DNA from: a virus
IMG/VR virus record: IMGVR_UViG_3300050821_008578
Span: 1 to 64,000 of that record
Direction: 5' to 3' (one strand)
Length of the DNA: 64,000 nucleotides
The position numbers and the translations under genes are program-made. Each line of letters opens with the position of its first letter. The stretch's first letter is position 1. Below the pieces are notes generated by a model. It was not told the origin of the DNA, searched no databases, and worked only from the letters and a program-made list of their open reading frames with translations. This document shows positions 9,145-47,222 of this stretch, piece after piece.

Positions 9145-9153
9145 TAATTCTTT

Positions 9154-9263
9154 CGGTTTAGTCCTAAACCGCTCTAATACAGCGCTATTAGGCCTACAGC
9201 AGTAATTAAATACTATACCCCAACACTTGTTGGGGTTAGTTAAAACTGATTGTAAAGGCTTTT
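9154..9263 (+). other. Multi-hairpin intergenic structure (terminator/processing element)
   Basis: Inverted repeats CGGTTTA/TAAACCG, CTAATA/TATTAG and ACCCCAAC/GTTGGGGT, plus closing GCCT/AGGC followed by TTTT. Confidence 0.55.
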
Positions 9264-9265
9264 AA

Positions 9266-9748: not shown

Positions 9749-9755
9749 TAAAGTA

Positions 9756-10604: not shown

Positions 10605-10692
10605 TTGTTATGATATTAATTTTATGGATTTTGGTGAAGTAAAATTTTTAAATGAAAGATTAATGAAACACTTACAAGGACATTTGGAATAA
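10543..10692 (+). CDS. +1-frame extension of the chaperone (gp51/GT-like), probably reached by frameshift
   Basis: Open frame FVEIKSLLNVEFGLALKNIINCYDINFMDFGEVKFLNERLMKHLQGHLE*, ending 1 nt before the tape-measure ATG; begins at CCC TTT CGT. Confidence 0.6.
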   Translation, partial: FVEIKSLLNVEFGLALKNIINCYDINFMDFGEVKFLNERLMKHLQGHLE

Positions 10693-12654
10693 ATGGAAGA
10701 TGATTCTAATCTACCTAGTAGATTAACTCCTAATCAGCTTAAAGCATTAGCTTTTGAAAAAGCTCAAGGAGGAACATCATTTAAAGATGTAAAAAGTAGA
10801 AAAGATCAAGGTAAAATTGAAACTTTATCTCGTAAATTAAAAGCTGATGATAAGAAAATAAATGATATAGATACTGATGTAAAAGAATTTACTAATAAAC
10901 CAATCAAACAAAATAAACAAGCTGGTACTGTTTTAACTATTCCTCCTAGTGAATATAAACCAGGACAATATAAACAAAAACCTATTTTAAATTATATAAA
11001 TAAATTGAGAGAAAAAATATTTGGATCTAAAAGAGGAACTCAAGAAGAAAATGAACTAAGAAAAGATCTAATTAAGGTTGGTACCCAAACTGTTATTGTT
11101 AATAAATTATTAGAAACAAATACAGAAACACTTCATGAAGTAGCTAAAAAAGATATTGAATTAGCTAAATTATTAAAAAGACTAGGTGATTCTCGTAATG
11201 CAGAATTGTCTAAAAAGGTTGAATCAGGACAAGAAATCTTTCCAGAAGAGGCTGGAGAAATAGTTGGTCATTTAGAAGATGTGGCTTATGGATTAGATAA
11301 TGTAGGAGTAGCATTAAAATTAGAAATTCCAGATGTTATTCAAACAGTTCAAGATTTATTAAATAATAATAAATTGGATATAGATACAAGAAGACAGTAT
11401 TTTGCTGATCTAGCTAAAGTATTATCTTCGGAAGATGTTAATATTGATCCTAAATTACTTGAAGATATTAAAAATATTAATATTAAAGCTACTAATTTTA
11501 CTGAAAAAGAATTAGAATCATTAAATTCTATTTTAGATACTTTGAAAGCAACTTCTACTGGCGAAAAGATTTATGGTTCTATTAAAGATTTGAAAAAACA
11601 ATTAGGTACAATTATATTAAATCAAGAAGAACTACATGAATTTCAAGAACAAGAAGGAGCTAAAAAATTAACATCTAAAGGTCTTGGGGCTATACCTGAA
11701 CAAGTTAAAAGTGGGTTACTTAATTCATTATTTGCCTCTTTAGGTCTTCCAGGATTAGGATCTTTATTAGGTGCTTTAGGTGTTGATGCTGTGGGATTAG
11801 CCACTAAAGGAATTGGTGCTATTTCTAGTTTACCAAAATTTTTAAAAGGTGTTGTGGGTAGTGGTGAATCTACTAGTTTGGGTGGGGGATTTTTATCAGG
11901 AGCTATTGAAAGTATACAAGGTATTTTAACTAAAGTTGCTCAAACATTTACTGAAGTAATCGCTCCAGTAGTTGTATTTGCAAGTGCTATTTCTGGTGCT
12001 GTTACAGGTATAATGGAAACAATGGATGAATGGAAAAACTTTTTTTCTGGATTATGGGATTTAGGTAAATCATTCGTTGGTTTAATAAGCAGATTAGTTG
12101 GTAATTTAGAAGATGCAGTACCAATATTAAAACCAATTATTGAAGGATTAAAAGATTTTGCTAGTTTTATATTTAAATTACCTGTTACTTTAGTTAAAAT
12201 GATATTTGAAGGATTTAAAAATATTTTTGGTTGGTTAGGAATAGGTGCTGGTGGTTTAGGTGATTTATTTAAATCTGGTGCTAAATTTTTAGATACTATA
12301 GGTGTAAGTGGTAATACTGATATTACTAATACAGGTGATACAATAGGTATGAATATGGCTATTCCTACATCAAATGCTGCTGTATCACCATTAGCATATA
12401 ATATGCCTGTTCAAACTATGGGTGCTGTGAATCCTTCTATTCCATCAATGGATACTTCTGCTTCAGCAACTGTTAGTAAATTAGATAATATGTCTATGGT
12501 AAATCAAGCTAAAATTGCAGATAATTCAGGAAAACAAATCACAGTACCAGTAATAATTCCACAAGATAAGAAAACCAATCAGCCAGCAAATCGTCAACAT
12601 GGGGTTGATGATCTTTCTACTGCTATGATGAATAATGGATTGATAAATCAATAA
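10693..12654 (+). CDS. Tape measure protein
   Basis: Long helical protein with Gly/Ala-rich hydrophobic segment and W/F-periodic region; follows the chaperone. Confidence 0.7.
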   Translation: MEDDSNLPSRLTPNQLKALAFEKAQGGTSFKDVKSRKDQGKIETLSRKLKADDKKINDIDTDVKEFTNKPIKQNKQAGTVLTIPPSEYKPGQYKQKPILNYINKLREKIFGSKRGTQEENELRKDLIKVGTQTVIVNKLLETNTETLHEVAKKDIELAKLLKRLGDSRNAELSKKVESGQEIFPEEAGEIVGHLEDVAYGLDNVGVALKLEIPDVIQTVQDLLNNNKLDIDTRRQYFADLAKVLSSEDVNIDPKLLEDIKNINIKATNFTEKELESLNSILDTLKATSTGEKIYGSIKDLKKQLGTIILNQEELHEFQEQEGAKKLTSKGLGAIPEQVKSGLLNSLFASLGLPGLGSLLGALGVDAVGLATKGIGAISSLPKFLKGVVGSGESTSLGGGFLSGAIESIQGILTKVAQTFTEVIAPVVVFASAISGAVTGIMETMDEWKNFFSGLWDLGKSFVGLISRLVGNLEDAVPILKPIIEGLKDFASFIFKLPVTLVKMIFEGFKNIFGWLGIGAGGLGDLFKSGAKFLDTIGVSGNTDITNTGDTIGMNMAIPTSNAAVSPLAYNMPVQTMGAVNPSIPSMDTSASATVSKLDNMSMVNQAKIADNSGKQITVPVIIPQDKKTNQPANRQHGVDDLSTAMMNNGLINQ

Positions 12655-12655
12655 T

Positions 12656-13444
12656 ATGGCAACACCACATATAAACTATAATGATCTCTTTGGTCCAGAT
12701 GCTATAAATTCTAGAATTACTATTCTAGGATTATCTGGTGGTCCAGTTGTTGGTATTATAAGTCAAGATTTTACATTTTCTGCTAGCAATTCATTTGGAA
12801 CTCCATTAGATAATTCAGCTCAAAATGCTCTTAGTGATACTTTAATGGGTGCACAAGCATTATCAGGTAATGTGGCTGCAAGAGCAGGATATAAAGGTGG
12901 TTCTTTAACAAAACCATTTACATTAAGAACTATTGAACAATCTATTAAAACTTGGACAGGTTCAGATACACCTGTATTTAATATATTATTAAGAATAAAT
13001 GCAATTAATGAAGATGATGATGTTAGAGAAGATGTAGCTTCATTACTATCTGCAGTAGCACCAGGTTCTCTTAATGCCCAAGGTGTATCTAGAAATCTAA
13101 ATCAAATTGCAGCTAATTCTAATAGTGGTATAACTCAAGCAGTTACTAGTACTGCAGCTAGTGCTATTGGTCAAGTTCCTTCATCACAATTTTTAACTCC
13201 ACCATTAAATTATTTACCATTAGGATTAGCATCTCAAGGCACATTAACTATTAGTATTGGTAGATGGTTTAAAGCTCATGGACAAGTCATGATGTCTGTT
13301 ACTCCCACCTTTTCTAGAGAAACTATTCAAAGTGGTGCACCATTATTTTGTGATGTATCAATATCATTTACCCCTTATAGAATAATAACTGCTAGTGAAT
13401 TAATGGCTTATATCAGTACACCTTTAGCTCCGGTGGTAGGATGA
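12656..13444 (+). CDS. Baseplate/tube-initiator protein
   Basis: Synteny after TMP; C-terminal FSRETIQSGAPLFCDVSISF. Confidence 0.5.
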   Translation: MATPHINYNDLFGPDAINSRITILGLSGGPVVGIISQDFTFSASNSFGTPLDNSAQNALSDTLMGAQALSGNVAARAGYKGGSLTKPFTLRTIEQSIKTWTGSDTPVFNILLRINAINEDDDVREDVASLLSAVAPGSLNAQGVSRNLNQIAANSNSGITQAVTSTAASAIGQVPSSQFLTPPLNYLPLGLASQGTLTISIGRWFKAHGQVMMSVTPTFSRETIQSGAPLFCDVSISFTPYRIITASELMAYISTPLAPVVG

Positions 13445-13800
13445 GTTATTTTTTTATAAATTTAAATTATGTTCCAATTTCTGAGAGATTTGATCTTGCT
13501 AGATTTATGAATTATACTGATAATTTTGATCCTTTGACTCCAGCTTTCTTTCCACAGTTATCTTCATTAACAGTTCAAGGTACTTATATAGTTCAATTTG
13601 AAGTTAGTAGGCCTGATCTTCTTAGTTATACTATTTATCAAGATACACAGTATTGGTGGATAATAATGTTATTCAATGGTTTAACAGATGCTGATGAAGT
13701 AGTAGAAGGATTATCTATTTCTTTTCCTGGTGTAGATCAAATTGAAGATTTATTATTTTCATTACAGGCTCAACAAATAGCAAATGGATCAGGATCATAA
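13441..13800 (+). CDS. Baseplate wedge protein (gp53/LysM-like)
   Basis: RPDLLSYTIYQDTQYWWIIMLFN motif. Confidence 0.8.
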   Translation: MSYFFINLNYVPISERFDLARFMNYTDNFDPLTPAFFPQLSSLTVQGTYIVQFEVSRPDLLSYTIYQDTQYWWIIMLFNGLTDADEVVEGLSISFPGVDQIEDLLFSLQAQQIANGSGS

Positions 13801-14934
13801 ATGTCTATAGGAGTTGTTGGGGCTTATTTATTTAAATTTTCATTAAATAATAATAATGACTTCATTGATGAACCTGATTTAATAAGTTTCAGTATTCATG
13901 AACAAGCAGGTAATTTATTACCTACATTTGAATTAAATTTTTTAACTGATGATGAAACAATATTTCCATTATTAAATGAGGGAAATGATTTACAAGTTTC
14001 ATTTGGTAGTGGTTATAATGATTTAGTTACAATACCTTTAGCAACTAGTAAAGTACAATCAGTTCCATCGGGTTCAGCTAAAAGACAAATAACGGTAATG
14101 GGGTTATATTCAGCTATTCCATATATAACTAATCCTAATATGCAAATAACAAATGTTCAATCAGGCATATCTACTATAATTCAAATTGCAGGAAAAAGTT
14201 TTAATGTTCAATCAAATATTCAATCTTCTACAGATAGTCAATCATGGATTCAACATACACAATCTGATAAATCTTTTATTGATGATATATGGTTACATTG
14301 TAATTTACCTAATTCTTTTCCAGCACTTGGTATAAGTTCTCAAGGTAATTTTATTTTAAAAGATATTAAAACAGATTTGAAAAATCCATATAGATATAGA
14401 TTTACTCAAATAGTTAAAAATTCTAATGATATTTATTTTGATGGTGATCCTGTTTTAACTTCAAATACAGGATTTATAAATAGTTGGGTTGGGTATGGAA
14501 GAGAAAAAATAATTCAGAATGTAGATAAGGGTACTGATTCCACTGAACAAGTTATTCCAAAACCAGTTATGGCACTTACTTCTCAATTAGCTAAAGCTGC
14601 AGGAATTAATTCGGTATTTGATGGAATTGGTATTCAAAATAGTAATATAGATACAAATTATTGGAATTCTTATTTAAATAATTTAACATACTTAGGTATG
14701 TTTGGTGCATTAGATGTTACAGTTAGTTTTCAAAATAAATTTATACCAATTCAAATATTAGATCAAATTAATTTTAAAGATCAAAAAATAGATCAACAAT
14801 ATCCAACAACAAGTGATTATAACACCGGAATTTATTACGTTTCTAAAATAAGTAGAAATGTTGGTAATAAAGCATTTAATACTGTAGTTAGTTTTTCAAG
14901 AGAATCTTTTAATGGAATACAAGTTGGTTTATAA
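13801..14934 (+). CDS. Baseplate hub protein (gp27-like)
   Basis: Size and position before the spike; C-terminal TGIYYVSKISR. Confidence 0.6.
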   Translation: MSIGVVGAYLFKFSLNNNNDFIDEPDLISFSIHEQAGNLLPTFELNFLTDDETIFPLLNEGNDLQVSFGSGYNDLVTIPLATSKVQSVPSGSAKRQITVMGLYSAIPYITNPNMQITNVQSGISTIIQIAGKSFNVQSNIQSSTDSQSWIQHTQSDKSFIDDIWLHCNLPNSFPALGISSQGNFILKDIKTDLKNPYRYRFTQIVKNSNDIYFDGDPVLTSNTGFINSWVGYGREKIIQNVDKGTDSTEQVIPKPVMALTSQLAKAAGINSVFDGIGIQNSNIDTNYWNSYLNNLTYLGMFGALDVTVSFQNKFIPIQILDQINFKDQKIDQQYPTTSDYNTGIYYVSKISRNVGNKAFNTVVSFSRESFNGIQVGL

Positions 14935-34650: not shown

Positions 34651-34947
34651 TCAATTTAGAATCGAATTAATTTCTGGACAATTTGTATGATCACATACAA
34701 AAACTGATGAATTAAATCCTGGAAGATCTAAAGCAATTAGAAGTTGTAGTTTAGGAAATTTTGTAGTAAAATGACCATATAATTGAGGATCTAAAAATAC
34801 TATATTATTTTTATTATAATAAACTGGTGAAGTAAAATTAAGTAGATCAGAAACATTTTTTAATTGTTCTTGCATATCTCCTTGTACTTCTTCTAATTCA
34901 CGAGTTTCAATATCTAATAATGATTTTGCATTTTCTACTGTATCCAT
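34651..34947 (-). CDS. Hypothetical protein
   Basis: Coupled ORF. Confidence 0.6.
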   Translation of the reverse strand: MDTVENAKSLLDIETRELEEVQGDMQEQLKNVSDLLNFTSPVYYNKNNIVFLDPQLYGHFTTKFPKLQLLIALDLPGFNSSVFVCDHTNCPEINSILN

Positions 34948-36044
34948 TATTTCTCCTTATTCATAACCCAACTTGGTGGGGTAAATTTATTACAAATTAC
35001 AGCACTTGCTAGATCACCACTTAAATGTGGCAATGGTCTATGACTAACTTCTTCTAGTTTTTCATCTATATAACATTGCAATAAATATGCATAATCATAT
35101 AATTGATTATTTTGAGTTGGTACACCATATTGTTTAAAAATTGAATTTACTGTATAATTTAAATTACCATTAATTTGTTCACATAAATGATAATATAATT
35201 CATGAAAAAAGTTTTGCATTTCTACTTGATTATTAATATGACCTAAAGTAATAGGTAATACTTCATTATTAACTGATCTTTGTTTATTCATTTCTTTATT
35301 TTTAACTATTTCTTTACCTTGTTTAGAAGTTTCCTCATATAAATGCAAAGAAATAATATTATTAGAAAAATAACCTAGTGTTAAATTTTTAAATACATCT
35401 GAATCTTGGTTTTTCAATAATGAAAGCACACATTCTTGTAGAAATGTCCACTCAGGAATATTAATTCCTGACATACCAAATAAACAATCATTACTACGAA
35501 CAGTAACCTTCATATTTAATTTGTTATCTCTCACCCAAAAATAAATAAAATTATTGCATGGAATATCTTTACTTTGATCAAGACCATATTTATCTTTAAG
35601 TGCAGTATGTGTATCTTGTTCTGCACTCCAAATATTCATAACTGCTCTACGGGTATTTGGACCATCCTGTTTAAAAATATCTAAAACATTTTGAATTTGA
35701 TTATAGAAATATAATCTGGGGCCATAGGCACCACGCCATGTTTTTCCGTCATCACTATAATTCTTGGCTCTAGGAAGAAGAAAATTCATCAATGGTTCTA
35801 ATTTATTCTCTCCAGCCATAATCCAAAATATTTCACCAATAGTTGCATAAATATTATTAGTTCTTCCTTCTAAATATAAATGCCTGGCTTTAGGATTAGT
35901 AAGAACTACTTCTTGATCGCACAATTCAAAAGTTTCTCCATTTCTTGAATCAACCTTATTACCTTTAGTTAATAATGTTTCACACACATCAAAAGTTAAT
36001 TCATTCAATGAATTACCAGAAATAATATCTTTTTTTAAAATCAT
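34947..36044 (-). CDS. Thymidylate-synthase-family enzyme, probable dUMP hydroxymethylase
   Basis: YSDDG..GAYGPRL, TRRAV, KDIPCN and RSND; Asn at the base-specificity position (GINIPEW); long C-terminal extension. Confidence 0.75.
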   Translation of the reverse strand: MILKKDIISGNSLNELTFDVCETLLTKGNKVDSRNGETFELCDQEVVLTNPKARHLYLEGRTNNIYATIGEIFWIMAGENKLEPLMNFLLPRAKNYSDDGKTWRGAYGPRLYFYNQIQNVLDIFKQDGPNTRRAVMNIWSAEQDTHTALKDKYGLDQSKDIPCNNFIYFWVRDNKLNMKVTVRSNDCLFGMSGINIPEWTFLQECVLSLLKNQDSDVFKNLTLGYFSNNIISLHLYEETSKQGKEIVKNKEMNKQRSVNNEVLPITLGHINNQVEMQNFFHELYYHLCEQINGNLNYTVNSIFKQYGVPTQNNQLYDYAYLLQCYIDEKLEEVSHRPLPHLSGDLASAVICNKFTPPSWVMNKEK

Positions 36045-36658
36045 TAAACACCTTTTTCTATTAGTTCAAGAATAGCTTTAGTAATTACTTCTTTTGATTG
36101 ATCTCCAACTGGAAGATAATAAATACTCTCTTCTGGAGTAAATACAAAATCATTACCAGTTGATAAATAATCAAAAAATGAAAAATAGTGAGCCTTCAAT
36201 TCTTTCCATTTAAATGTTTTTTCAAATTCATCTGTTGGGTCATTAATATATTTAATATCTTTATCTAAGAAAATAATAATAATATCAAAATTATCTTTAA
36301 TAACTTTTGAATAAGTTTCTTTATGAATTTTAAATAGTAAATTATTTTGATCATCTGTTAATGATGATGTTTTACCATAAACATAAGTAGAAATATGACA
36401 CCTATCCATAACAATATCTCTATCAGAATCAAATTCAGTAAATATATCTACAATATGAGATACAGTATGTAATAATTGTCTAGAAAATGGGTCATATGAT
36501 GGATTATTTTTAACTTCATCTCTCAAAAACCCAACTGAATTAGTAGGACTGGGTTGAATGATTAATTTAGCATTAAAATGATTGGCTAGAATTTTTGTTT
36601 GTACAGATTTTCCTACACTATCCGGTCCTTCTAGAACAATTAATTTACGTTTTGCCAT
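36044..36658 (-). CDS. dNMP (thymidylate-type) kinase
   Basis: LEGPDSVGKS P-loop; MDRCHISTYVYG. Confidence 0.85.
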   Translation of the reverse strand: MAKRKLIVLEGPDSVGKSVQTKILANHFNAKLIIQPSPTNSVGFLRDEVKNNPSYDPFSRQLLHTVSHIVDIFTEFDSDRDIVMDRCHISTYVYGKTSSLTDDQNNLLFKIHKETYSKVIKDNFDIIIIFLDKDIKYINDPTDEFEKTFKWKELKAHYFSFFDYLSTGNDFVFTPEESIYYLPVGDQSKEVITKAILELIEKGV

Positions 36659-36740: not shown

Positions 36741-37070
36741 TTATTTTGGAAGGATAAGTCCTGATGGTGCTTTAATAATTCCACTTTTTACAGCTTTATA
36801 ATCTTGAACCATATCTTTATAACCATTAGCTAACATTGGTGTTATTTGTAATTCACAAAGAATAGCATTTCTATTTATATCAATAAAATTTTGTTGTTGT
36901 GATAATATATTAAATGGTATAAAAGTTAATGTTGGCCTTCCACCAGGATGTGTTGGTGGTTGTACTTGAGGTATCATTGGCACAATCCAAGCAATTTTAT
37001 CATCTTGTACCATTTCTTCAGTAATTATATCAATTCCAGACACTAATTTATAATGTTTTATATTATCCAT
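36741..37070 (-). CDS. Conserved phage protein, Sm-like
   Basis: KLVSGIDII ... SGII..P pattern; start at MDNIK. Confidence 0.5.
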   Translation of the reverse strand: MDNIKHYKLVSGIDIITEEMVQDDKIAWIVPMIPQVQPPTHPGGRPTLTFIPFNILSQQQNFIDINRNAILCELQITPMLANGYKDMVQDYKAVKSGIIKAPSGLILPK

Positions 37071-37962
37071 AAAAATACCGGTTCTTTCCTTTTCCATTTG
37101 ATAAGTTATAATGTTTTCGAAATTCACACAAACATGACTGAATATCCATAAATGATAGATAATCAGAATTAAAATAAGAATTTTTATAATTTATTTCCAA
37201 CCAATTTTTGTTTTCTTGTTCTTCTAAATGTTCAAATATTTCTGATTGAATAGAAGCTAAATATTTAATTAAATCTTCTGCATTATTTTTATTAACAATA
37301 TCTTTAAAAATAATCTCTAAACCAGCATAAGCACCTGGTCCGCAAGTAACCCAATCATTATTTCCAAATTTAGAAATTTTAGCATATCCTAAATCTAACA
37401 TTATTTGCCCAGCAATAAATGGACCAACTAATGGAATTTCTCTAAGTTTTAATATTTGTTCTTCTGGTGTTTGTTTTGATTTAAAATCTTCTAAAAATAG
37501 ATGGACTCTTTCAGCCAACCAATCCAACATATATAGAACTTGAACATGTTTTCTATTACTTAGTTCTTTATTCCATATTGCTGGAAGAATAAGATATGCA
37601 TCATTCCAGATAGATGGTTTTACTTTAGATTTTTCGTCTAATTCTTTAACTAAAGATTCAACATTAAAATTATGCGGTATTAGTATATAATTAAATACTC
37701 TTCCATCAAATGTTTGATCTAAATTAAAGAATCTATAAGCCACTATATTAAGAAATTTGATAGTATCATTAAGATCAGTATTAATTATTTTTTTAATTAT
37801 ATATTTTGAACCTCTATCTAATTCTCTATATACATTACAAGATTTAAATTTTTGAAATATAGGATCAGTGGTCCAAGGTTTTGGTTCTTTAAGAACTTCT
37901 TTTTTATGATAAATCAAATGTCTATCATAGATAAATTCAAAAAAAGATAATTTATCAATCAT
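37063..37962 (-). CDS. 5hmdU DNA kinase helical domain protein (aGPT-Pplase1 family)
   Basis: PWTTDPIF..KSCNVYRELDRGS, YRFFN, GPFIAGQI..DL, GPGA..GL and DIQSCLCEFRK. Confidence 0.85.
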   Translation of the reverse strand: MIDKLSFFEFIYDRHLIYHKKEVLKEPKPWTTDPIFQKFKSCNVYRELDRGSKYIIKKIINTDLNDTIKFLNIVAYRFFNLDQTFDGRVFNYILIPHNFNVESLVKELDEKSKVKPSIWNDAYLILPAIWNKELSNRKHVQVLYMLDWLAERVHLFLEDFKSKQTPEEQILKLREIPLVGPFIAGQIMLDLGYAKISKFGNNDWVTCGPGAYAGLEIIFKDIVNKNNAEDLIKYLASIQSEIFEHLEEQENKNWLEINYKNSYFNSDYLSFMDIQSCLCEFRKHYNLSNGKGKNRYFYG

Positions 37963-40541: not shown

Positions 40542-41354
40542 TTATTTAATACTTTCATAAAATTGCTCACAAGCTTCATTATTAAAAGGAATAAATTTAC
40601 TCATTTCTAGATTATTATTTATAATTCCTTCTACCAAAGATAGATCTTGAGTTTGACCATTTATTCTCAAATTAGAATTATTATTACAATAACTTACAAA
40701 TTTATCTGCTAGTTCACCCAATCCTAAAAATTTGAGATAATTATATCCAAATACATATACTGGGTCATCGAATTTCTGAGTATGTACTTCACATTTATTT
40801 AAAGTTGGTGATTTTAACTCTTTAGATAAATTTTTATTATATTGATAGTTATTCTTAGTTGCTGTTTCTGTACCCCAGCATGTACCTTTAATTATCTTAC
40901 CACCATTACGATTAAAGCATCTATCAATCATTGATTCTCTTTTATCATAAAAGAAATATTGATAGAAAACATTATTATACCCAAATTTATTATGTATTGA
41001 ATCTAGATTATATACTGGGCTAAGAGTTAATGGGTATCCTTCACAAATAAAATTCTTATTACTAAATTTTTTAATTAACCAATAAACAAACCAAGCACCA
41101 AATCCTGTATTTAAATAATCTAGACCTGTCCAACTATGTAATTTACTTGCTCTACCCAATGCATATTTACCAGTTATAAATATATTTAGATCTGGAAATT
41201 CAATAGCAATGGGACATTTCTTATTTTTAAATTCAGTATGATAAATTTGATAATTATAATTTTTACTTAATAAGAATCTTAATAGCTGTTCAACTCTAGT
41301 ACCTTTACCTGAACCTGAAATACCTTTAAGTTGTGCATATGAAGAAGTAATCAT
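40542..41354 (-). CDS. P-loop kinase of the 5hmdU DNA kinase type
   Basis: KGISGSGKGT, GKY...GLD and CEG; adjacent to the amino acid:DNA transferase. Confidence 0.7.
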   Translation of the reverse strand: MITSSYAQLKGISGSGKGTRVEQLLRFLLSKNYNYQIYHTEFKNKKCPIAIEFPDLNIFITGKYALGRASKLHSWTGLDYLNTGFGAWFVYWLIKKFSNKNFICEGYPLTLSPVYNLDSIHNKFGYNNVFYQYFFYDKRESMIDRCFNRNGGKIIKGTCWGTETATKNNYQYNKNLSKELKSPTLNKCEVHTQKFDDPVYVFGYNYLKFLGLGELADKFVSYCNNNSNLRINGQTQDLSLVEGIINNNLEMSKFIPFNNEACEQFYESIK

Positions 41355-41356
41355 TT

Positions 41357-42379
41357 TTATATTTCCAAATCTTTATATTGATTAAGTTCAGGTAATGTTC
41401 CTGTATCCAAAAATATATTCATTCTTGATTTATCTATTTTCTCGTTTACTATAGTATTACCATTAGGAACACATTCTTTCATCCAGTCATAAATAATATT
41501 AAAATCTACCCCATAAAAATATGTTTTAGATTTATCAATATCCTCTAACAGTCTTGCCAAATAATAACCAAGATAACGTCCATCTTTACGTCTAAATAAT
41601 TTTTTAAATGAACATAAAGCAGTTTCAACATAGAAATAATCTACTTTAACATCTGGAAATCTTAGTTTAATCTCATTTATAATAGAATCAGTTTCATAAT
41701 CAAACCATTTTATCATAGCTGAAGTATATTTAACTGATTGTTTTACTTTTTTAGTTCCATTATCTATATAAATTCTAGATGCTAATTCTGGTTTATCAAG
41801 AATATAACATAATCCATCAGTAGGACTTTGAGTATTCATGCCAAATTGTATTGAAGTTGGTTCAATATTTAACCCACAACAGTATTTAAGATGTTGCATA
41901 TAAAAGAATAAAACATATCTACCAAAATATCTAATATTACTTAATTCAGATTTAAGTTTATTATAATTTACTTTAGGATCATCACTATTACAAATATCTT
42001 TGAAATATTGTTCTTGTGTTCTACCAGCTAATAGATCTTTATAACTAGAAATAATTAAATCTAATTTACCACGATTCCATTTTACATCCGATTGATGATG
42101 AATCTGTTTGTAATTGTTTCTATTCCAAACTTTAATATCTTCTAAATCAATATTTTCAAGATCTGGAATATAATTGAATATAGCATAAGCTGAAGCGGCA
42201 TCATAAGTAATACCATAAAGAAGACAGAAATAATATCGCTGTTCTAAATTATATTCTTGTCTTTCAAATAAATAATTAGTAACAGGAATAGCAGTATCTA
42301 TATCATTATTCCTATACTGCCATACATAATATTTTATAAATGCTTCTCTACGATTCTCAGGTAGGCGAAAATCCATCAT
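41357..42379 (-). CDS. Amino acid:DNA transferase (aGPT-Pplase2/ADDT family)
   Basis: DFRLPENRREAF, FGRY..F.Y, DGLC and ETALCSFKK..R..RYLGYY. Confidence 0.85.
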   Translation of the reverse strand: MMDFRLPENRREAFIKYYVWQYRNNDIDTAIPVTNYLFERQEYNLEQRYYFCLLYGITYDAASAYAIFNYIPDLENIDLEDIKVWNRNNYKQIHHQSDVKWNRGKLDLIISSYKDLLAGRTQEQYFKDICNSDDPKVNYNKLKSELSNIRYFGRYVLFFYMQHLKYCCGLNIEPTSIQFGMNTQSPTDGLCYILDKPELASRIYIDNGTKKVKQSVKYTSAMIKWFDYETDSIINEIKLRFPDVKVDYFYVETALCSFKKLFRRKDGRYLGYYLARLLEDIDKSKTYFYGVDFNIIYDWMKECVPNGNTIVNEKIDKSRMNIFLDTGTLPELNQYKDLEI

Positions 42380-42762
42380 TTATCCAGATATGAGCGTTTA
42401 CTTCCAGGACTATCAATAATAACTACACAATTATCTGAACCACATTTACATTGAAATGATGTAGATAATTTACTTTCATTATCTAAATAATTAAAAGTTA
42501 TTTCTTCTCCAATGCTAATATATTTTTTAGCCCTCATAACTCTATTAGTTTTATCTACATAACAATTTGGTGAACAACTATGATTTGTATAAGCACCCCA
42601 TGGATTTACAACATGTAAATTGGGTGATAGTTCAATTGAACGTAAACTAGAATTTTGAGAAAATTCACCCATATCTAAATTAAATACTTCTGCATCTGGT
42701 AAGAATAGATTATTAGCAACTAATGATACTTGCCCAAATTTATTTTTCTTGAATGTTAACAT
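42376..42762 (-). CDS. SET-domain methyltransferase with post-SET motif
   Basis: NHSCSPN, GEEITFNY and CKCGSDNC. Confidence 0.9.
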   Translation of the reverse strand: MLTFKKNKFGQVSLVANNLFLPDAEVFNLDMGEFSQNSSLRSIELSPNLHVVNPWGAYTNHSCSPNCYVDKTNRVMRAKKYISIGEEITFNYLDNESKLSTSFQCKCGSDNCVVIIDSPGSKRSYLDK

Positions 42763-43387
42763 CAGTATCTCCTAATTGGGATTTAACTAAATCATACATA
42801 TATCTATTAGAATATTTATTATTCAATAATTCTTTTTCTGAATTAGTTTTATCTGTTCTTCTAATAATTAGATTCCAAACTGATTGATTATTAATACCAA
42901 ATTCTTCATATTTCATATTCTCATATTTCTTAAAATCTTCAATATCATTACTTAATAATGGTAAATTTACATAATATGAATTTTCTTTAGTTTTACTCCA
43001 ATATACTAATCCGAGTTTATTATAAAATCTCATTGTATGAGTTAAATCATCACAATTCATACGGATTCTTGTCTTCCCAGAATCATAAGCTAATTTTACT
43101 GCTTCTCTAATTAATCTTTTAGCATATCCTTTTTGACGATATTTAACTGGAGTAACAATATTAAGAATGGTAATATATTTTTGTTTAGTTATATTATAAA
43201 ATAATACAGAAGTTATTTCACCATTATCTTCAATTGCCATAACAGGTTTTTCTTCATATTTATAAAAACTAGCATAAAAAGCCATAGAACCACTAGAAAA
43301 ATTTAGTGTTTCCTTATCATTAATATCTATTTTATTATGAAATTTATTAGCATATTCTTCTTTTGAATGAAAGAATACAATATTCAT
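42740..43387 (-). CDS. GNAT acetyltransferase
   Basis: IVTPVKYRQKGYAKRLI (motif A); FYNKLG. Confidence 0.85.
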   Translation of the reverse strand: MNIVFFHSKEEYANKFHNKIDINDKETLNFSSGSMAFYASFYKYEEKPVMAIEDNGEITSVLFYNITKQKYITILNIVTPVKYRQKGYAKRLIREAVKLAYDSGKTRIRMNCDDLTHTMRFYNKLGLVYWSKTKENSYYVNLPLLSNDIEDFKKYENMKYEEFGINNQSVWNLIIRRTDKTNSEKELLNNKYSNRYMYDLVKSQLGDTDVNIQEK

Positions 43388-44211
43388 AATTCACCTTTTA
43401 AAATAAGTTCTCTATTTTTCAATACTGTTTCCATATCATTAAATTTAGTATTAGTTAATAGCCATTTCTTTTCTAATTCATGATCATATGGATATTCCTT
43501 TGGTAGATTAAAATTATTAGCCCAATCTTTAACTGGTTTTCTATCACTTAATGCTTGATCTAAATATTCCATATCAAATAGAAACATTTCCTGAAGATCA
43601 TTAATATTAATTGATGGATGGTGCCACCGAAATTCAATCGATCCTGATGTCCATAATGAATACAAATTAACTGAAAATCTTTTTGTTGTTTGCCATAGAA
43701 TTCTACCATCAGATACTACTGCATGACCTTCTTTAAATTCTTTAATAGTTTTAGCATTCATACAGTGATTATAACGCAATTCATTCATAATCTTACGATC
43801 AAATGATCTAAATGATTTTGTATTTCTACCCATTTCAGGAAGAATAGTAAAATACCATTTATTGTCTATAAACCATTGTCCATTCTCATTAGTATAACTA
43901 AGTATTTTCTTAAGACTATCTAGATCCTCTTTAGCACCTTCCCATGACAAATGAATATGTGTTACTGATTTATGATTCACTCTAGCCTCAGGAAATCTTT
44001 TAAATAATTCTTTAATTTTATTCATCATTTCATCTAATGAATAAGATGGTGTTGAATTGAATTCAATTCCTAATGGATAATCTAAAGCTGCAGCAATACC
44101 ATTGTGATTCATAATATCTGGATCGAAGGAAGTAGTCCAACCTTCAGGCAATGGTCTATCTTTTGGCACATCACATAATTCTAATTCAATACCTAGAGAA
44201 TATTTTTTCAT
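43384..44211 (-). CDS. Amidoligase (glutamine synthetase/GCS-like COOH-NH2 ligase), paralog 2
   Basis: GIELE, EFNSTP, THIH, KRFSVNL and SIEFR. Confidence 0.75.
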   Translation of the reverse strand: MKKYSLGIELELCDVPKDRPLPEGWTTSFDPDIMNHNGIAAALDYPLGIEFNSTPSYSLDEMMNKIKELFKRFPEARVNHKSVTHIHLSWEGAKEDLDSLKKILSYTNENGQWFIDNKWYFTILPEMGRNTKSFRSFDRKIMNELRYNHCMNAKTIKEFKEGHAVVSDGRILWQTTKRFSVNLYSLWTSGSIEFRWHHPSININDLQEMFLFDMEYLDQALSDRKPVKDWANNFNLPKEYPYDHELEKKWLLTNTKFNDMETVLKNRELILKGEL

Positions 44212-44510
44212 TTTGTACTTTGTACCATACCAAGTTGTTGGGAATATTTATAATATTTATTCACTTTTTCAGTTCTTTTTTTAATTTCACTTTCAAATGT
44301 TTGATCGCATTGAAATATATTCTCTCCAGTCATTATTCCTAAAATAACATGTAAATCAATAAGTTCATCTTGAAGCCGTTCAGCATTATTTTTACTTTGA
44401 CCTGGTTGAATTTCATTAAATCCAAATTGTTGAGTTTTCAATGCTCTTTGTGCAACTTCTGTACATTCTTCTGCCAATTTGGTAAGAAGAAATTGAGATC
44501 TTGTCATCAT
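44208..44510 (-). CDS. MazG-like all-alpha NTP pyrophosphohydrolase
   Basis: LAEECTEVAQ...LQDELIDL. Confidence 0.75.
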   Translation of the reverse strand: MMTRSQFLLTKLAEECTEVAQRALKTQQFGFNEIQPGQSKNNAERLQDELIDLHVILGIMTGENIFQCDQTFESEIKKRTEKVNKYYKYSQQLGMVQSTK

Positions 44511-44515
44511 TTATT

Positions 44516-45307
44516 TTAGCCTTTACTTTTAGTCTGTTGGTATTTATTATGTCGTTCTAAATTAAATTCAATCTCAGTAGGGAATTTATATCCATTCCAT
44601 CTAAGTGATTCTATTGGTTTATCATTTAATGCTGCTTCCATAAAATCTCTGCAATATTCAAAAGTGCTTTCTACTACTTCAGGATCCAAAGTGGCATAGA
44701 AATGACGAAATTCAATAGTACCATGTTTTTTAGCTGAACTCAAGTTAACACTATACCGCCTACCAGTTTGGGGTAATACTCTACCGTCTTTTACTTTATA
44801 AAATGAATTAAAAAAGTCTTCTAATGTTTCAGCATTCATACAAAATTTGTATTTCCAATCTGGTAATGACTGTCTATCAACTTTTGCATAACCCCATGCT
44901 GCTGCATCCATAAGTGGGTGTTTAGTGGGGTTGAATGTTCTTGATAAAATATATTCAGCATTAATTTGAAAATAAGATAAAATTTTCTTTAATGCACTTA
45001 AATCTTCATTCAATCCTGGATAAGAAACATGGAAATGCGTGTGACTACGATGGGTTACAGTTACACCTGGTAGTAATTTAACAGCTAATTCAAATAATTC
45101 TTTTTGTTCTTTGATAGTATTAGTTGGTTTAGTATTCACTTCACCACCAATATCATGTAACTTACCTGATGGATCAATTGCTATGCCATCTGAATTTACA
45201 ATATCTTTTTCATTTGAATTCCAAGATAATCCATCAGGTAATACAATAGATCTAGATACATCTGAAAATTCATATTCGGCGCCAAAAGTAAAATTCATAA
45301 CTGCCAA
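44516..45307 (-). CDS. Amidoligase, paralog 1
   Basis: TFGAEYE, GGEVNTKPT, THFHV, RRYSVNL and TIEFRHF. Confidence 0.8.
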   Translation of the reverse strand: MAVMNFTFGAEYEFSDVSRSIVLPDGLSWNSNEKDIVNSDGIAIDPSGKLHDIGGEVNTKPTNTIKEQKELFELAVKLLPGVTVTHRSHTHFHVSYPGLNEDLSALKKILSYFQINAEYILSRTFNPTKHPLMDAAAWGYAKVDRQSLPDWKYKFCMNAETLEDFFNSFYKVKDGRVLPQTGRRYSVNLSSAKKHGTIEFRHFYATLDPEVVESTFEYCRDFMEAALNDKPIESLRWNGYKFPTEIEFNLERHNKYQQTKSKG

Positions 45308-46038
45308 TCCTGAAGATTAATTCCTTCAATTTTATCTAATATAACAACCTTATTAGCTTGTAATCCATAAACCGTTCCCGGTTCTGTTTTGGTTATATTT
45401 AACAGCTTAGTAGAGTCTTCAAAACCTACTAAAGACCTTTTAATAATCTCTTTGGTTGAAGCTACAATAGTAAATTTTGAATATCCTTCTAGTTCAGCAT
45501 AATATAATGGACGTCTACCATTACGATAGAATTGAATATTACCATCAACCCATAATTGACATATAGCCATAGAAAAATGTATATCATCCTGATTTTTGCT
45601 TAAAGTGAGAGGGTTAACACCATTTGACATTTTAATATGGGCAATTTCAGTATCATTAGTAGTTTTGCATTCTACATTAAATAACGTTTTCCACTGATTT
45701 AGGTTAGCTTGAGTTATTACCCCATTCATAGAAATAGATAATTCACCATCAGCAATAGGTTGTGCATTTTTAATATCTGGATCACCCGAGGTACTATATC
45801 TTGTATGTGCTATAAGATTAATAGATCCATATTTTTGGATCTCTTCTTCAATATGAAACCAGTACTTGTCTGTAAATTCTCTTGATGGAATTTTATCTTT
45901 AAGTGTTGTAAGTCCATATTTAGAGATATAAGAAACACCAGTACTATGTTTACCTCTAATTTGACTTTCTTCCAATAATTTACGAACTATTGGTAAATCT
46001 CTAACATCATTTGATCTAATACCTATTACACTACACAT
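45295..46038 (-). CDS. Class II (Ntn) glutamine amidotransferase
   Basis: True start MCSVIG gives an N-terminal Cys; RGKHSTG, HTRYSTSG, QP, NG, NDTE and RPLY. Confidence 0.85.
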   Translation of the reverse strand: MCSVIGIRSNDVRDLPIVRKLLEESQIRGKHSTGVSYISKYGLTTLKDKIPSREFTDKYWFHIEEEIQKYGSINLIAHTRYSTSGDPDIKNAQPIADGELSISMNGVITQANLNQWKTLFNVECKTTNDTEIAHIKMSNGVNPLTLSKNQDDIHFSMAICQLWVDGNIQFYRNGRRPLYYAELEGYSKFTIVASTKEIIKRSLVGFEDSTKLLNITKTEPGTVYGLQANKVVILDKIEGINLQDWQL

Positions 46039-46039
46039 A

Positions 46040-46264
46040 TTATTTATTATTTTCTTTAAAAAATTGAATTGCTTCAGCACAATTAGTTACCCATAAACAA
46101 TTAGGGACTTTTACACATAAGACTAAATCAGGTCCTATTAATGGAGAAAATGCATATAATGCTTGTGCTTCATTAAAAACAACTACTCTATTAATTAAAG
46201 TAACTGGGTTATTAGTACTATAATGACTATCAATAATTAATTCTTCTAGATTCATTGAGTTCAT
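46040..46264 (-). CDS. Hypothetical protein
   Basis: Coupled ORF. Confidence 0.55.
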   Translation of the reverse strand: MNSMNLEELIIDSHYSTNNPVTLINRVVVFNEAQALYAFSPLIGPDLVLCVKVPNCLWVTNCAEAIQFFKENNK

Positions 46265-47001
46265 TTATTACTCCTATACCAATCAATAGTTTTAGTTAAA
46301 CCATCAATCAATTCAGTTCTTTTTATATTAAATTTAAAATTATCTAATTTACTAGTACTACCAATTATTACTGGATTATTTTTACTAGATTGTTTTTCAA
46401 ATCTAATATCACATTGTTTATCATTAATTAATTTATTAATAATAATTGCTAGTTGTAATTCTGAATTACCCACCCCAGTACAGATATCTACTTTATCACA
46501 AAAGTATGTTTCATTTTTATTTAAAAATTCCATCATTGAATATAAATAATTTACTACATCCTTTACATAAATAAAATCTCTAATTTGACTACCACTGCCA
46601 TAAATAACTGATGGTTTATTATTTAGTGATTGATTTATTAACTTTGAAATAATTCCTGAATTAATATCTTGTCTTTCACCATAAACATTAAATAAATTAC
46701 ATTCAATAAATTTATTATAATATTTTTCATTAATTTTAGAAAAACTTCGTAAATAAATTGTATTATTAATGGATAAATCAAATACACCATCTGTTAGATA
46801 AATAACACTATCATGAACTAATTCTTTGGATAAGTCTAAATTAATAAACTGAAATTTAGTAGAATCAAGATGTGATAGATTTTTTCTATCATTTTCTTTA
46901 GAATTATCAATAATTATTGGATAATCACCATTTTCAATTATTTTCTCAACTAAATGAGAACCAATAAATCCAGCCCCACATGTAACTATATATCTTTTCA
47001 T
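46261..47001 (-). CDS. Degenerate NAD-dependent epimerase/dehydratase (internally deleted)
   Basis: TCGAGFIGSHL, FNVYG and RDFIYVKDV present; YxxxK segment missing. Confidence 0.7.
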   Translation of the reverse strand: MKRYIVTCGAGFIGSHLVEKIIENGDYPIIIDNSKENDRKNLSHLDSTKFQFINLDLSKELVHDSVIYLTDGVFDLSINNTIYLRSFSKINEKYYNKFIECNLFNVYGERQDINSGIISKLINQSLNNKPSVIYGSGSQIRDFIYVKDVVNYLYSMMEFLNKNETYFCDKVDICTGVGNSELQLAIIINKLINDKQCDIRFEKQSSKNNPVIIGSTSKLDNFKFNIKRTELIDGLTKTIDWYRSNK

Positions 47002-47222
47002 TTTTGTTCTTTAATATTATTAAAGTCTATTTTATTTAATTGAGACACCACATCAAATATTTCTATTTTTGTTTTATCCCAATCTTCAAAATTAGATTTA
47101 TATACCAATTGTGTGAGTCTATTCAATCTTTCTTTTAAATTATGTACTACTTCAAAACCTTCTTGTTTGGCTTTTAATAGTTCTAATTGATATAAATCAT
47201 AATCAATTATAATAGTTTTCAT
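46998..47222 (-). CDS. Hypothetical protein
   Basis: Coupled ORF. Confidence 0.55.
   Translation of the reverse strand: MKTIIIDYDLYQLELLKAKQEGFEVVHNLKERLNRLTQLVYKSNFEDWDKTKIEIFDVVSQLNKIDFNNIKEQK

Follow-up and report, generated by a model that had tools for sequence, protein, structure and literature searches.

The question raised by this locus is what a phage might build on thymidine when a class II glutamine amidotransferase (GATase), two amidoligases, an acetyltransferase and a SET-domain methyltransferase are encoded beside a 5-hmdU DNA kinase and an amino-acid:DNA transferase (ADDT or AADT). The locus lies in a 64,000-nucleotide stretch of viral DNA (the window; positions 1 to 64,000 of IMG/VR record IMGVR_UViG_3300050821_008578), and its genes were assigned to families by means of Pfam with curated cut-offs and PHROGs, as follows.

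46261..47001, minus strand: short NAD-dependent epimerase/SDR (Pfam Epimerase 76.4 bits; PHROG 540, nucleotide-sugar epimerase)
45295..46038, minus strand: class II (Ntn) glutamine amidotransferase, GATase (247 aa; Pfam GATase_6 36.1 bits, cut-off 27)
44516..45307, minus strand: GS-like amidoligase 1, ATP-dependent carboxylate-amine ligase (Pfam Amidoligase_2 at threshold, 22.0 vs 22)
44208..44510, minus strand: MazG-like all-alpha NTP pyrophosphohydrolase (100 aa; assigned through PHROG 4856 only, 1.5e-23, Pfam MazG being under its cut-off)
43384..44211, minus strand: GS-like amidoligase 2, paralogue of amidoligase 1
42740..43387, minus strand: GNAT N-acetyltransferase (215 aa; Pfam Acetyltransf_1 35.5 bits, cut-off 20.7)
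42376..42762, minus strand: minimal SET-domain methyltransferase (128 aa; Pfam SET 39.8 bits, cut-off 22.4)
41357..42379, minus strand: amino-acid:DNA transferase ADDT/AADT, clade 2 aGPT-Pplase (Pfam PF18724 70.4 bits, cut-off 26.2)
40542..41354, minus strand: P-loop 5-hmdU DNA kinase, HMUD2 type (Pfam PF18747 99.7 bits, cut-off 25; Walker A GSGKGT)
37063..37962, minus strand: stand-alone HMUDK_hel protein (Pfam PF18723, 180 bits)
36044..36658, minus strand: thymidylate-kinase-like dNMP kinase (Pfam Thymidylate_kin 28.6 bits; PHROG 761)
34947..36044, minus strand: thymidylate-synthase-fold (TS-like) enzyme (Pfam Thymidylat_synt; PHROG 3676, 5.8e-84)

An earlier note on this DNA had described the eight genes from GATase to kinase as one cluster at 40542-46038, and all eight are indeed found there, co-oriented and tightly packed, with junctions of 4-nt overlaps or 2-5 nt gaps and two exceptions: the GNAT and SET genes overlap by 23 nt, and the GATase and amidoligase-1 genes by 13 nt (TTG start) or 4 nt (ATG at 45298, probably the true start of amidoligase 1). 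The SET gene overlaps both of its neighbours, its start lying within the end of GNAT and its end within the start of ADDT. A pre-replicative half, comprising the TS-like enzyme, the dNMP kinase and HMUDK_hel, follows just downstream on the same strand and was absent from that note's list. One 74-codon ORF separates the epimerase/SDR and GATase genes; the epimerase/SDR has no counterpart in the related loci compared (80 ADDT loci, 76 amidoligase loci), and its place in the pathway is uncertain.

We read the locus as a thymidine-hypermodification operon, a rare extended variant of a widespread "GATase-AADT" cassette in which ammonia passed from GATase to ADDT is followed by tailoring, and we give this account as a whole about an even chance. 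Its footing, a hypermodification cluster built on kinase and ADDT as first proposed, is sound: both families score above their cut-offs, and the ADDT carries a motif, E251-T252-x-x-C255, that is invariant in the clade alignment and has the spacing of the catalytic Glu243/Thr244/Cys247 of PaMx11 gp46 (PMC11472151), while its AF2 model (pLDDT 94.5) finds PaMx11 gp46/PUGT (8z2n) as top fold match with probability 1.0.

The proposed pathway would begin before replication. By homology, the TS-like enzyme would be a dUMP hydroxymethylase and the dNMP kinase an hmdUMP kinase, together yielding hmdUTP, and the MazG-like NTPase may clear dTTP and dUTP so that hmdUTP is used instead; with hmdUTP supplied and its competitors depleted, DNA would be made with 5-hmdU. 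Relatives of the TS-like gene found by tblastn cluster in Ackermannviridae, Pseudomonas and Bacillus phages, groups with hmdU users among their members, and both it and the dNMP kinase have orthologues in contig L002 (IMGVR_UViG_3300032516_001409). HMUDK_hel (PF18723), the helical domain that accompanies 5-hmdU DNA kinases, adjoins the HMUD2 kinase in L002 and in a further contig, L042. The MazG-like gene is missing from the TET-type relatives among the 80 related ADDT loci, which have no need to exclude dTTP. The P-loop kinase, judging from its family, would then convert 5-hmdU in DNA to 5-PmdU, whereupon the ADDT would flip the base, attack C6 through Cys255 and expel the phosphate to leave an exocyclic methylene, as has been established for M6 gp51 and PaMx11 gp46; the corresponding motif is present in this ADDT.

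What attacks that methylene is the central issue, and here gene neighbourhoods and structure prediction point to the GATase. ADDT relatives occur in at least 517 IMG/VR stretches, and neighbourhoods were read in the 80 nearest; wherever the sequence extended 3 kb or more upstream, a GATase lay upstream of the ADDT on the same strand (53/53 loci), whereas an amidoligase was present in only 19/53, so that the core job of the GATase appears independent of amidoligases. The commonest cassette was GATase + GNAT + ADDT (31/53), for which the simplest reading is that an amine is formed and then acetylated. The GATase gene truly starts at the ATG at 46038, giving an N-terminal Met-Cys that recurs in 58 distinct homologues, and the residues invariant in the homologue alignment (C2, R28, R80, N105-G106 and D129) can be aligned with the glutaminase domain of GlmS (1xff); the enzyme has kept Cys1, the Asn-Gly oxyanion pair, and the glutamine-binding Arg and Asp, although the conserved glutamine-binding residues are equally compatible with a gamma-glutamyl-amide hydrolase (EgtC-like). 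Models of the ADDT + GATase complex scored 0.90/0.90/0.91, as against 0.00 for the best of three controls, with at least 96% of contacts agreeing between runs and partner pLDDT of at least 88; in calibration, the mark for such scores was reached by 58/80 solved complexes and 2/110 mismatched pairs, counts that are only rough because our own alignments were used. The predicted interface covers the active-site face of the GATase (residues 1, 26-31, 81-83, 107, 110, 174-177 and 194-197) and, on the ADDT side, R39, N43, D72 and G289, which are invariant in the GATase-associated clade and differ in the Ackermannviridae AADTs that lack a GATase yet keep the catalytic residues. Recall of a solved complex of this kind is an unlikely source of the result, since no PDB chain matched the ADDT profile in sequence, and the GATase profile matched just the glutaminase domain of GlmS, marginally. 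Being a prediction, the model speaks to docking and not to what might travel from one active site to the other. The GATase is thus a predicted partner of the ADDT and its likely ammonia donor, and the predicted docking fits glutamine-derived ammonia attacking 5-phosphomethyl-dU; in this newly proposed step, a heterodimer would hydrolyze glutamine and use the ammonia as nucleophile to form 5-aminomethyl-dU, bypassing the glycine-plus-FAD-lyase detour of PaMx11. Among the roles that the earlier note had offered for the GATase and amidoligases, ammonia supply has emerged as the best supported, given the co-occurrence, the predicted complex through the active-site face and the intact glutamine-binding residues.

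The remaining genes would then elaborate the amine. Amidoligase 1 (AF2 model pLDDT 92.3) has YbdK, GshA/GshF, glutamine synthetase and gamma-glutamylmethylamide synthetase as its best folds (probability 1.0); its invariant residues E8, E10, E53, H88, H90, R181, E196 and R198 are all common to amidoligase 2, which is 33% identical to it (BLASTP 3e-44) and found no match in the Pfam search. The subfamily is tied to the cassette, with an ADDT in 68/76 and a GATase in 72/76 of its loci, and in Vibrio phage 2.275.O a homologue adjoins a QueF-like gene in a 7-deazaguanine cluster that could, like this locus, make an aminomethyl base. Homologues of the GNAT occur in 57/80 related ADDT loci; the GNAT itself shows no detectable similarity to sequences of cultured phages, PaMx11 gp48 included. 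The two ligases would use ATP to couple one or two carboxylates to the amine through amide bonds; judging from their fold relatives, glutamate, through its gamma-carboxyl, or another amino acid is the likeliest source of the carboxylate. A primary amine that is left would then be acetylated by the GNAT and methylated by the SET enzyme. The pathway would end in an acyl- or peptidyl-aminomethyl-dU with acetyl and/or methyl groups, a kind of base that, to our knowledge, is not in the literature. Since the cassette is itself unstudied and is extended here by two amide-forming ligases, an acetyltransferase and a SET enzyme, the phage probably makes a DNA base that has never been measured. No PLP, radical-SAM or flavin enzyme had been recognized in the window, and this extends to the 78-kb record (PF00282, PF04055 and PF01266 without a match), in which no TET enzyme was found either; likewise, FAD lyase, PLP and rSAM enzymes are missing among the common neighbours of the 80 related ADDT loci. 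The record is 42% complete by CheckV, so further enzymes could sit beyond it.

Two other readings of the core chemistry deserve weighing against the ammonia route. The ADDT might instead attach an entire glutamine or glutamate by way of the alpha-amine. The GATase-like Ntn enzyme might then serve as a hydrolase or deamidase on a DNA-bound gamma-glutamyl or glutaminyl adduct or, like MurT/GatD, amidate free carboxylates of the adduct together with the amidoligases. An alpha-glutamyl-thymine-like intermediate would have two carboxylates for the two amidoligases to act on, a match in number that speaks for the idea. Free amino acids or polyamines are the donors of every characterized AADT (PMC8989533, PMC13458397), the conserved residues that bind the glutamyl alpha-amino and alpha-carboxylate groups suit gamma-glutamyl hydrolases too, and a GATase docked as modelled could reach an adduct in the ADDT pocket. 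We nevertheless hold this rather improbable, as the GATase is constant where amidoligases are not, the prevalent three-gene cassette is simplest as amine formation and acetylation, and the Trp with which PUGT binds the glycine carboxylate (FGPW motif) is replaced by Tyr in this ADDT (FGRY motif). Alternatively, the amidoligases, SET enzyme and/or GNAT may work away from DNA on a small-molecule amine donor (methylated, acetylated or gamma-glutamylated, for example), which the ADDT would transfer, finished, to 5-PmdU. Preformed polyamines are transferred in PhiW-14 and SH-Ab 15599, free metabolites are the typical substrates of GS-like ligases, and the nearest solved relatives of the SET protein include, besides Set2/NSD-type enzymes, the small-molecule SET-fold enzyme BurB (9l4t, 5e-8), which methylates a free amino acid. 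This seems to us quite improbable: the predicted GATase-ADDT coupling points to a nucleophile generated at the transferase itself, the ADDT clade stays constant in related loci while the tailoring set changes, which is easier to picture as post-transfer tailoring than as one transferase accepting many donors, and the tailoring enzymes of characterized pathways (PLP, rSAM, FAD and acetyltransferase) act on the DNA polymer (PMC8989533).

A third doubt concerns the SET enzyme, and possibly the GNAT, which may stand outside the base chemistry and merely sit in an early/replication operon, the former methylating a protein lysine (for example on a nucleoid protein of the host, on a DNA-binding protein of the phage or on a pathway enzyme). 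By far the most known SET enzymes methylate lysines of proteins, and the best PDB matches here are histone H3K36 enzymes; the motifs NHSCxPN, EEITFNY and post-SET CxCGSxxC are conserved in five sequences. Related SET genes lack ADDT, kinase and GATase at 65/66 IMG/VR and 80/80 metagenome loci, approximately 145 in all, 18 of which have a gene for NAD-dependent DNA ligase close by. For the SET enzyme of this locus, a substrate that is a protein or a small molecule is therefore a live rival to the DNA adduct. The survey of ADDT-homologue neighbourhoods suggested in the earlier note placed SET next to an ADDT in only one other contig, L002, and nearly all related cassettes are without it; in a close relative, a 12,193-bp contig apparently with ADDT and amidoligase 2, no SET homologue was recovered. 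The linkage is thus seen in two genomes. Against a detached role, the closest relatives of this SET gene keep company with the cassette. SET lies upstream of the ADDT in the window and downstream in L002, so that their adjacency has survived rearrangement; a 63%-identical SET and a 55%-identical amidoligase 2 are both listed for Logan contigs 30,952 bp long, probably one and the same contig. As the gene also overlaps both neighbours, we consider a function outside the pathway somewhat unlikely and retain SET as a candidate tailoring enzyme, in line with the histone-like set that the earlier note had envisaged.

The pathway had been put forward as new, and this holds in part. Cassettes from metaviromes that join TET/JBP (or dUMP hydroxymethylase) to a P-loop kinase, an AADT and a GATase, with or without amidoligase and GNAT, have been published as an observation, without biochemistry (Lee 2021, PMC8989533; PNAS 2026 T-dioxygenase paper, PMC13229309), and the link occurs in hundreds of IMG/VR contigs; the SET gene, second amidoligase and pre-replicative hmdU supply are distinctive, and none of the loci sampled (80 + 76) combines two amidoligases with GNAT and SET. 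New here are the GATase linkage in all informative loci, the ADDT-GATase model, the tie of the amidoligases to the cassette and the rarity of SET. The same ADDT clade and GATase, GNAT and amidoligase families are shared with the metavirome cassettes, but most of those relatives employ post-replication 5hmU formation by TET/JBP and a Ploopntkinase3-type kinase, whereas this phage has the TS-like enzyme, dNMP kinase, MazG-like NTPase and HMUD2 kinase. The nearest readable relative, L002 (ADDT 42%, SET 36% identical), also carries a separate orthologue of each amidoligase paralogue, the GATase, SET beside ADDT, HMUD2, HMUDK_hel, dNMP kinase and TS-like gene; it differs in its rearranged gene order, its lack of GNAT and MazG, and its additional octopine-dehydrogenase-like enzyme, third amidoligase-like gene and PLP decarboxylase.

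Among characterized systems, a glutamine amidotransferase already figures in phage DNA-base hypermodification through the deoxyarchaeosine pathway of phage 9g, where Gat-QueC works in dG+ synthesis (PMC6884629), although the chemistry is that of 7-deazaguanine and the amidotransferase is fused to QueC rather than docking as a subunit of its own onto a DNA transferase of HhH fold. Salmonella phage ViI and Pseudomonas phage M6 likewise combine a kinase and an AADT on hmdU DNA derived from a dUMP hydroxymethylase, but with a serine or glycine AADT and a PLP decarboxylase, plus an rSAM isomerase in M6; the present record has neither PLP nor rSAM enzyme, its ADDT is ~21% identical to ViI-like enzymes, and the donor-pocket and GATase-docking residues differ. 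In the 5-acetylaminomethyl-dU pathway of PaMx11, the gp49 kinase, gp46 glycine:DNA transferase/PUGT and gp47 FAD lyase are accompanied by the gp48 acetyltransferase, 5-NmdU being acetylated (PMC8989533). The two loci share a 5-hmdU DNA kinase, an AADT with the E-T-x-x-C motif and fold, an acetyltransferase and, as a likely common intermediate, 5-aminomethyl-dU, even though the transferases are remote (no sequence match to the PUGT PDB entry). Unlike PaMx11, this record lacks the FAD lyase and has a class II GATase predicted to bind the transferase, which suggests that the amine comes from glutamine and not from glycine cleavage, and it adds two amidoligases and a SET enzyme to the set.

The minus-strand gene cluster at 40542-46038 can with confidence be regarded as a genuine operon for thymidine hypermodification, of a kind already published though uncharacterised. 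Hypermodified thymines shield the DNA of phages against nucleases, restriction enzymes included, and are a source of DNA-labelling enzymes; the cassette that combines a class II glutamine amidotransferase (GATase) with an amino-acid:DNA transferase (ADDT or AADT) ranks with the most frequent gene sets for thymine modification in viromes that have yet to be characterised. The families themselves were reportedly defined by Iyer et al. in 2013. The GATase-AADT cassette has already been published as an observation (Lee et al., PMC8989533), and GATases, P-loop kinases, and AADTs were called consistently linked in a 2026 paper on T-dioxygenases (PMC13229309); the searchable literature holds no biochemistry, product, or enzyme role for the cassette. 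The present locus carries the richest tailoring set in the sample: a pre-replicative hmdU supply, the GATase-ADDT core, two amidoligases, a GNAT, and a SET protein occur together in none of about 150 sampled related loci, and the base made here has probably never been described. Most useful among the new results is a testable mechanism that covers the cassette as a whole, wherein a GATase docked on the transferase would supply ammonia; the possibility of a SET enzyme with DNA as its substrate is the most novel one.

The record has a G+C content of about 29%, and the window, its first 64 kb of 78 kb, carries structural genes on the plus strand followed by a long minus-strand arm for replication and nucleotide metabolism. 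The operon runs on the minus strand from 46038 down to 40542 as eight ORFs, and a few kb downstream of it lies a pre-replicative half (the last three features below) that was absent from the list of the earlier note.

Features of the operon and its pre-replicative half
45295-46038, minus strand: class II GATase, with a Met-Cys start at 46038
44516-45307, minus strand: amidoligase 1 (22.0-22.1 bits against an Amidoligase_2 cut-off of 22)
44208-44510, minus strand: MazG-like NTPase (PHROG)
43384-44211, minus strand: amidoligase 2, a paralogue of amidoligase 1
42740-43387, minus strand: GNAT
42376-42762, minus strand: SET (PF00856, 39.8 bits against 22.4)
41357-42379, minus strand: ADDT (PF18724, 70.4 bits against 26.2)
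40542-41354, minus strand: HMUD2-type 5-hmdU DNA kinase (PF18747, 99.7 bits against 25)
34947-36044, minus strand: thymidylate-synthase-fold (TS-like) enzyme
36044-36658, minus strand: thymidylate-kinase-like enzyme
37063-37962, minus strand: stand-alone HMUDK_hel protein

The earlier note had read the cluster as eight tightly packed genes forming a candidate new thymidine-hypermodification pathway. All eight are real minus-strand ORFs whose family assignments hold by Pfam and PHROG, with the MazG gene resting on a PHROG match and lacking Pfam support, amidoligase 1 scoring exactly at the Pfam threshold, and amidoligase 2, which has no Pfam match, being clearly paralogous to amidoligase 1 (33% identity, 3e-44). 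The junctions, which had been put at 5 nt or less throughout, include a 23-nt overlap between GNAT and SET. The lack of a PLP decarboxylase, radical-SAM enzyme, or DAO-type flavoenzyme, noted originally for the window, extends to the whole 78-kb record, in which PF00282 (PLP decarboxylase) and PF04055 (radical-SAM) gave 0 matches and no TET/JBP enzyme was found. The kinase has the Walker A motif GSGKGT and lies 2 nt downstream of the ADDT gene, and the tblastn relatives of the TS-like enzyme fall mostly in Ackermannviridae and in Pseudomonas and Bacillus phages, groups that include hmdU users.

Several observations concern the surroundings of the operon. A stretch at 46040-47222 (minus strand) encodes a short NAD-dependent epimerase/SDR of 246 aa between two 74-codon ORFs and is joined to the operon start by a 1-nt gap, with 4-nt overlaps between its genes; it has no counterpart in related loci. 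Terminator-like hairpins between 36000 and 50000 are about four times as frequent as in shuffled sequence (10 versus 2.6), one of them at 48097-48085 on the minus strand, and a sigma-70 promoter scan found fewer sites than in shuffled sequence. The HMUDK_hel protein contains an HhH-like LVGPFIAGQ segment, and its terminal CLCEFRK resembles the catalytic LCSFKK of the ADDT; homology between the two is not claimed, as hhalign against the ADDT profile returned a 24-residue motif only, at 5% probability. One candidate identity for it is the second, "paralogous" protein of aGPT-Pplase type that Lee et al. (PMC8989533) mention and that is poorly understood. A family A DNA polymerase fused to UDG, as in some T-modified phages, was ruled out, the polymerase here having no UDG domain. 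The operon had 0 megablast matches in 50,697 phage records, and three runs labelled "soil metagenome" contain 26-43% of the sampled words, with no RNA run listed.

The ADDT, assigned to the clade 2 aGPT-Pplases, scores 71 bits against PF18724 in a six-frame search, and its E251-T252-x-x-C255 motif, invariant in 32 clade members and kept in ViI-like AADTs, has the spacing of Glu243/Thr244/Cys247 in PaMx11 gp46, the glycine:DNA transferase PUGT, wherein Cys247 is the nucleophile and the Glu/Thr pair holds a metal (PMC11472151). Given that the ADDT and amidoligase profiles matched the PDB by sequence only at chance level, a fold search was needed; the AlphaFold (AF2) model of the ADDT (pLDDT 94.5) has PUGT (8z2n) as its top Foldseek match (probability 1.0, TM 0.53/0.60), followed by Ogg glycosylases, which share an HhH DNA-glycosylase-like helical fold. 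Identity to the serine transferases of ViI-like phages is only about 21%, and the FGPW Trp with which PUGT holds the glycine carboxylate is a Tyr in the invariant FGRY motif of the ADDT. Its putative function is the transfer of a nucleophile onto phosphorylated 5-hmdU in DNA (5-PmdU).

The cassette recurs widely in viromes. A single-protein search of IMG/VR for ADDT loci found nothing, an alignment query being needed; the family comprises 109 metagenome clusters and at least 517 confirmed IMG/VR stretches, and a scan of 185,579 prokaryote genomes yielded 5 distant MAG matches, none closer than the IMG/VR relatives. Homologues of window proteins in the best 80 IMG/VR ADDT loci include the GATase in 68, GNAT in 57, an amidoligase in 24, and SET in 1, namely IMGVR_UViG_3300032516_001409 (hereafter L002), the nearest readable relative. 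Other common neighbours in these loci are a Ploopntkinase3-type kinase (70), TET/JBP (59), DnaB, ParB, and two unknown proteins, with no PLP, rSAM, or FAD enzyme among the common neighbour clusters. Wherever one of the 80 loci offers at least 3 kb upstream of the ADDT gene, a GATase gene lies there on the same strand (53 of 53), accompanied by GNAT in 31, an amidoligase in 9, both in 9, and an amidoligase plus SET in 1, and standing alone in 3. Conversely, the best 76 new loci among 427 IMG/VR amidoligase relatives hold ADDT in 68, GATase in 72, and TET in 66. These two-way co-occurrence counts mark the GATase, GNAT, and amidoligases as true members of a thymine-modification cassette.

Since the GATase accompanies the ADDT clade without exception, amidoligase or not, physical coupling of the two proteins was tested by modelling their complex. 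The model scored 0.90, 0.90, and 0.91 in three runs, with at least 96% contact agreement and partner pLDDT of at least 88, and none of the three controls rose above 0.00; in calibration, 58 of 80 solved complexes scored this high, as did 2 of 110 mismatched pairs, counts that are rough only, with our own alignments supplied. Recall of a solved complex of this type is unlikely, because the ADDT has no PDB sequence match and the GATase only a marginal one (GlmS glutaminase domain); docking by the active-site face may still be something that the model has learned about class II GATase domains. That face forms the GATase side of the interface (residue 1 and loops R28-G29, Y81-T83, V107/Q110, R176-P177, and S194-T195), and the ADDT side includes the clade-invariant R39, N43, D72, and G289. 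The latter four positions read V/K, K/I, P/P, and E/E in two GATase-less Ackermannviridae AADTs (about 21% identity, such that these columns are uncertain), and the same two proteins keep E251, T252, C255, K258, and K259. The prediction supports a putative ADDT-GATase interaction.

The N-terminal Met-Cys of the GATase, with the Cys where class II enzymes have their catalytic residue, is shared by 58 distinct homologues, and all of 34 sequences retain R80, N105-G106, and D129; compared with the residues of GlmS that bind glutamine (Arg73 and Asp123) or form the oxyanion pair (Asn98-Gly99), R80 and N105-G106 align to the glutaminase domain (1xff), and D129 is, from its spacing, the putative equivalent of Asp123. 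A docked glutaminase is the standard enzyme route to ammonia at neutral pH. The simplest reading is that the GATase would dock on the ADDT to form a glutamine-dependent, two-subunit enzyme aminating 5-PmdU to 5-aminomethyl-dU in one step. Ammonia is chemically plausible as the nucleophile, since exogenous nucleophiles such as mercaptoethanol and borohydride trap the M6 gp51 methylene intermediate (Lee et al., PMC8989533). The conserved GATase residues would fit a role as gamma-glutamyl hydrolase equally well. Under glutamine-dependent amination, the commonest cassette (GATase, GNAT, and ADDT) would yield 5-acetylaminomethyl-dU, a known base reached by a new route.

The amidoligases would act on such an amine. 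Half of the subfamily (9 of 18 members) matches Amidoligase_2 (best 5.7e-8), and the model (pLDDT 92.3) resembles YbdK, GshA/GshF, glutamine synthetase (GS), and gamma-glutamylmethylamide synthetase (probability 0.9-1.0). Residues E8, E10, E53, H88, H90, R181, E196, and R198 do not vary across the two paralogues and 16 relatives, and we infer that they map to the metal- and ATP-binding residues of GS. In GS-fold ligases, ATP activates a carboxylate that is then joined to an amine, and the fold relatives found here mostly use the gamma-carboxyl of glutamate. L002 has a separate orthologue of each paralogue, so the duplication took place before the two phages diverged, and the copies probably serve different steps. 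The amine would receive one or two aminoacyl or glutamyl groups, after which GNAT would acetylate and SET methylate the remaining amines. GNAT gave 0 tblastn matches among cultured phages.

Amidoligase homologues also occur in two deposited phage genomes. In Vibrio phage 2.275.O (L083, MG592671.1; 9881-10993, 29% identity) the homologue adjoins QueF-like, QueC, Ntn-aminohydrolase, and FolE genes in a cluster for 7-deazaguanine modification of DNA; QueF produces an aminomethyl group (PMC6884629), and the homologue may acylate an aminomethyl-deazaguanine base. In phage Simon (L082, PQ683277.1; about 8600-14500, 35% identity), an unannotated sewage phage of 62% G+C, it adjoins a 456-aa HMUDK_hel-containing protein and a TS-like gene, which adds a further thymine-modification cluster to those in deposited genomes of phages. 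Both contexts fit an aminomethyl-bearing base as the amidoligase acceptor.

The gene that marks this locus out is SET. Residues N60, H61, C63, P65, F90, Y92, C105, C107, and C112 of its product are invariant in five sequences, and the protein has the SAM-binding and catalytic motifs NHSCxPN, ExxFxY (with the catalytic Tyr), and a post-SET Cys cluster and aligns with Set2-type enzymes. Its gene lies immediately upstream of ADDT in the window and immediately downstream in the reordered cluster of L002 (SET 36% and ADDT 42% identical), an adjacency that has thus survived rearrangement. Close relatives (58-63% identity) number only three among 5.8 billion protein clusters, and tblastn against cultured phages gave 0 matches. 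Judged by equal recorded sizes, one Logan contig of 30,952 bp seems to carry both a SET of 63% identity and an amidoligase 2 of 55%, and another contig, of 12,193 bp, both an ADDT of 60% and an amidoligase 2 of 63%, with no SET recovered from it; such hints are weak, since another equal size, 1,736 bp, is impossible as a shared contig for full-length genes of 343 and 275 aa. The context of the SET gene suggests a DNA-borne or small-molecule amine as substrate.

A protein or small-molecule substrate is also plausible for SET, given that 65 of 66 IMG/VR and 80 of 80 JGI metagenome loci with more distant SET genes are without hypermodification genes and add no further ADDT link, and that one of the two closest solved relatives is BurB, a small stand-alone SET-fold enzyme whose substrate we take to be a free amino acid. 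Action on the DNA adduct is given less than an even chance. The fuller proposal, rather unlikely as a whole, is that a hypermodified thymine in dsDNA bears a primary amine that SET would methylate on the nitrogen, after the glutamine-dependent, two-subunit GATase-ADDT "DNA amidotransferase" and two amide ligases, giving DNA with methylated and/or acetylated peptidyl-aminomethyl-uracil. If true, this would be a never-described base and the first SET-fold methyltransferase on a nucleic acid, extending the range of the fold from proteins and small molecules to DNA. Among these more distant SET loci, a recurrent phage neighbourhood pairs a small SET gene with an NAD-dependent DNA ligase on 18 viral or metagenome contigs, mostly 1-4 kb and up to about 8 kb apart (the IMG/VR contigs include L112, L116, L119, L121, L126, L127, L130, L131, L137, L139, and L141), with no thymine-modification genes nearby.

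The PaMx11-type pathway to 5-AcNmdU uses an FAD-dependent, MnmC1-like lyase to convert N-alpha-glycinyl-T to 5-NmdU, whereas the window's record has no DAO-family match; glutamine-derived amination would here take the place of the glycine and FAD-lyase route. M6/ViI-type pathways employ a PLP decarboxylase, joined in M6 by a radical-SAM isomerase, and neither is present in the 78-kb record. L002 differs in turn by extras absent here: the stretch at 11402-14891 that separates its SET gene from the kinase gene encodes an octopine/nopaline-dehydrogenase-like enzyme, a PLP decarboxylase, and a third amidoligase-like protein. There would be no precedent for reductive alkylation of the opine type on a DNA-borne amine, if true for L002.
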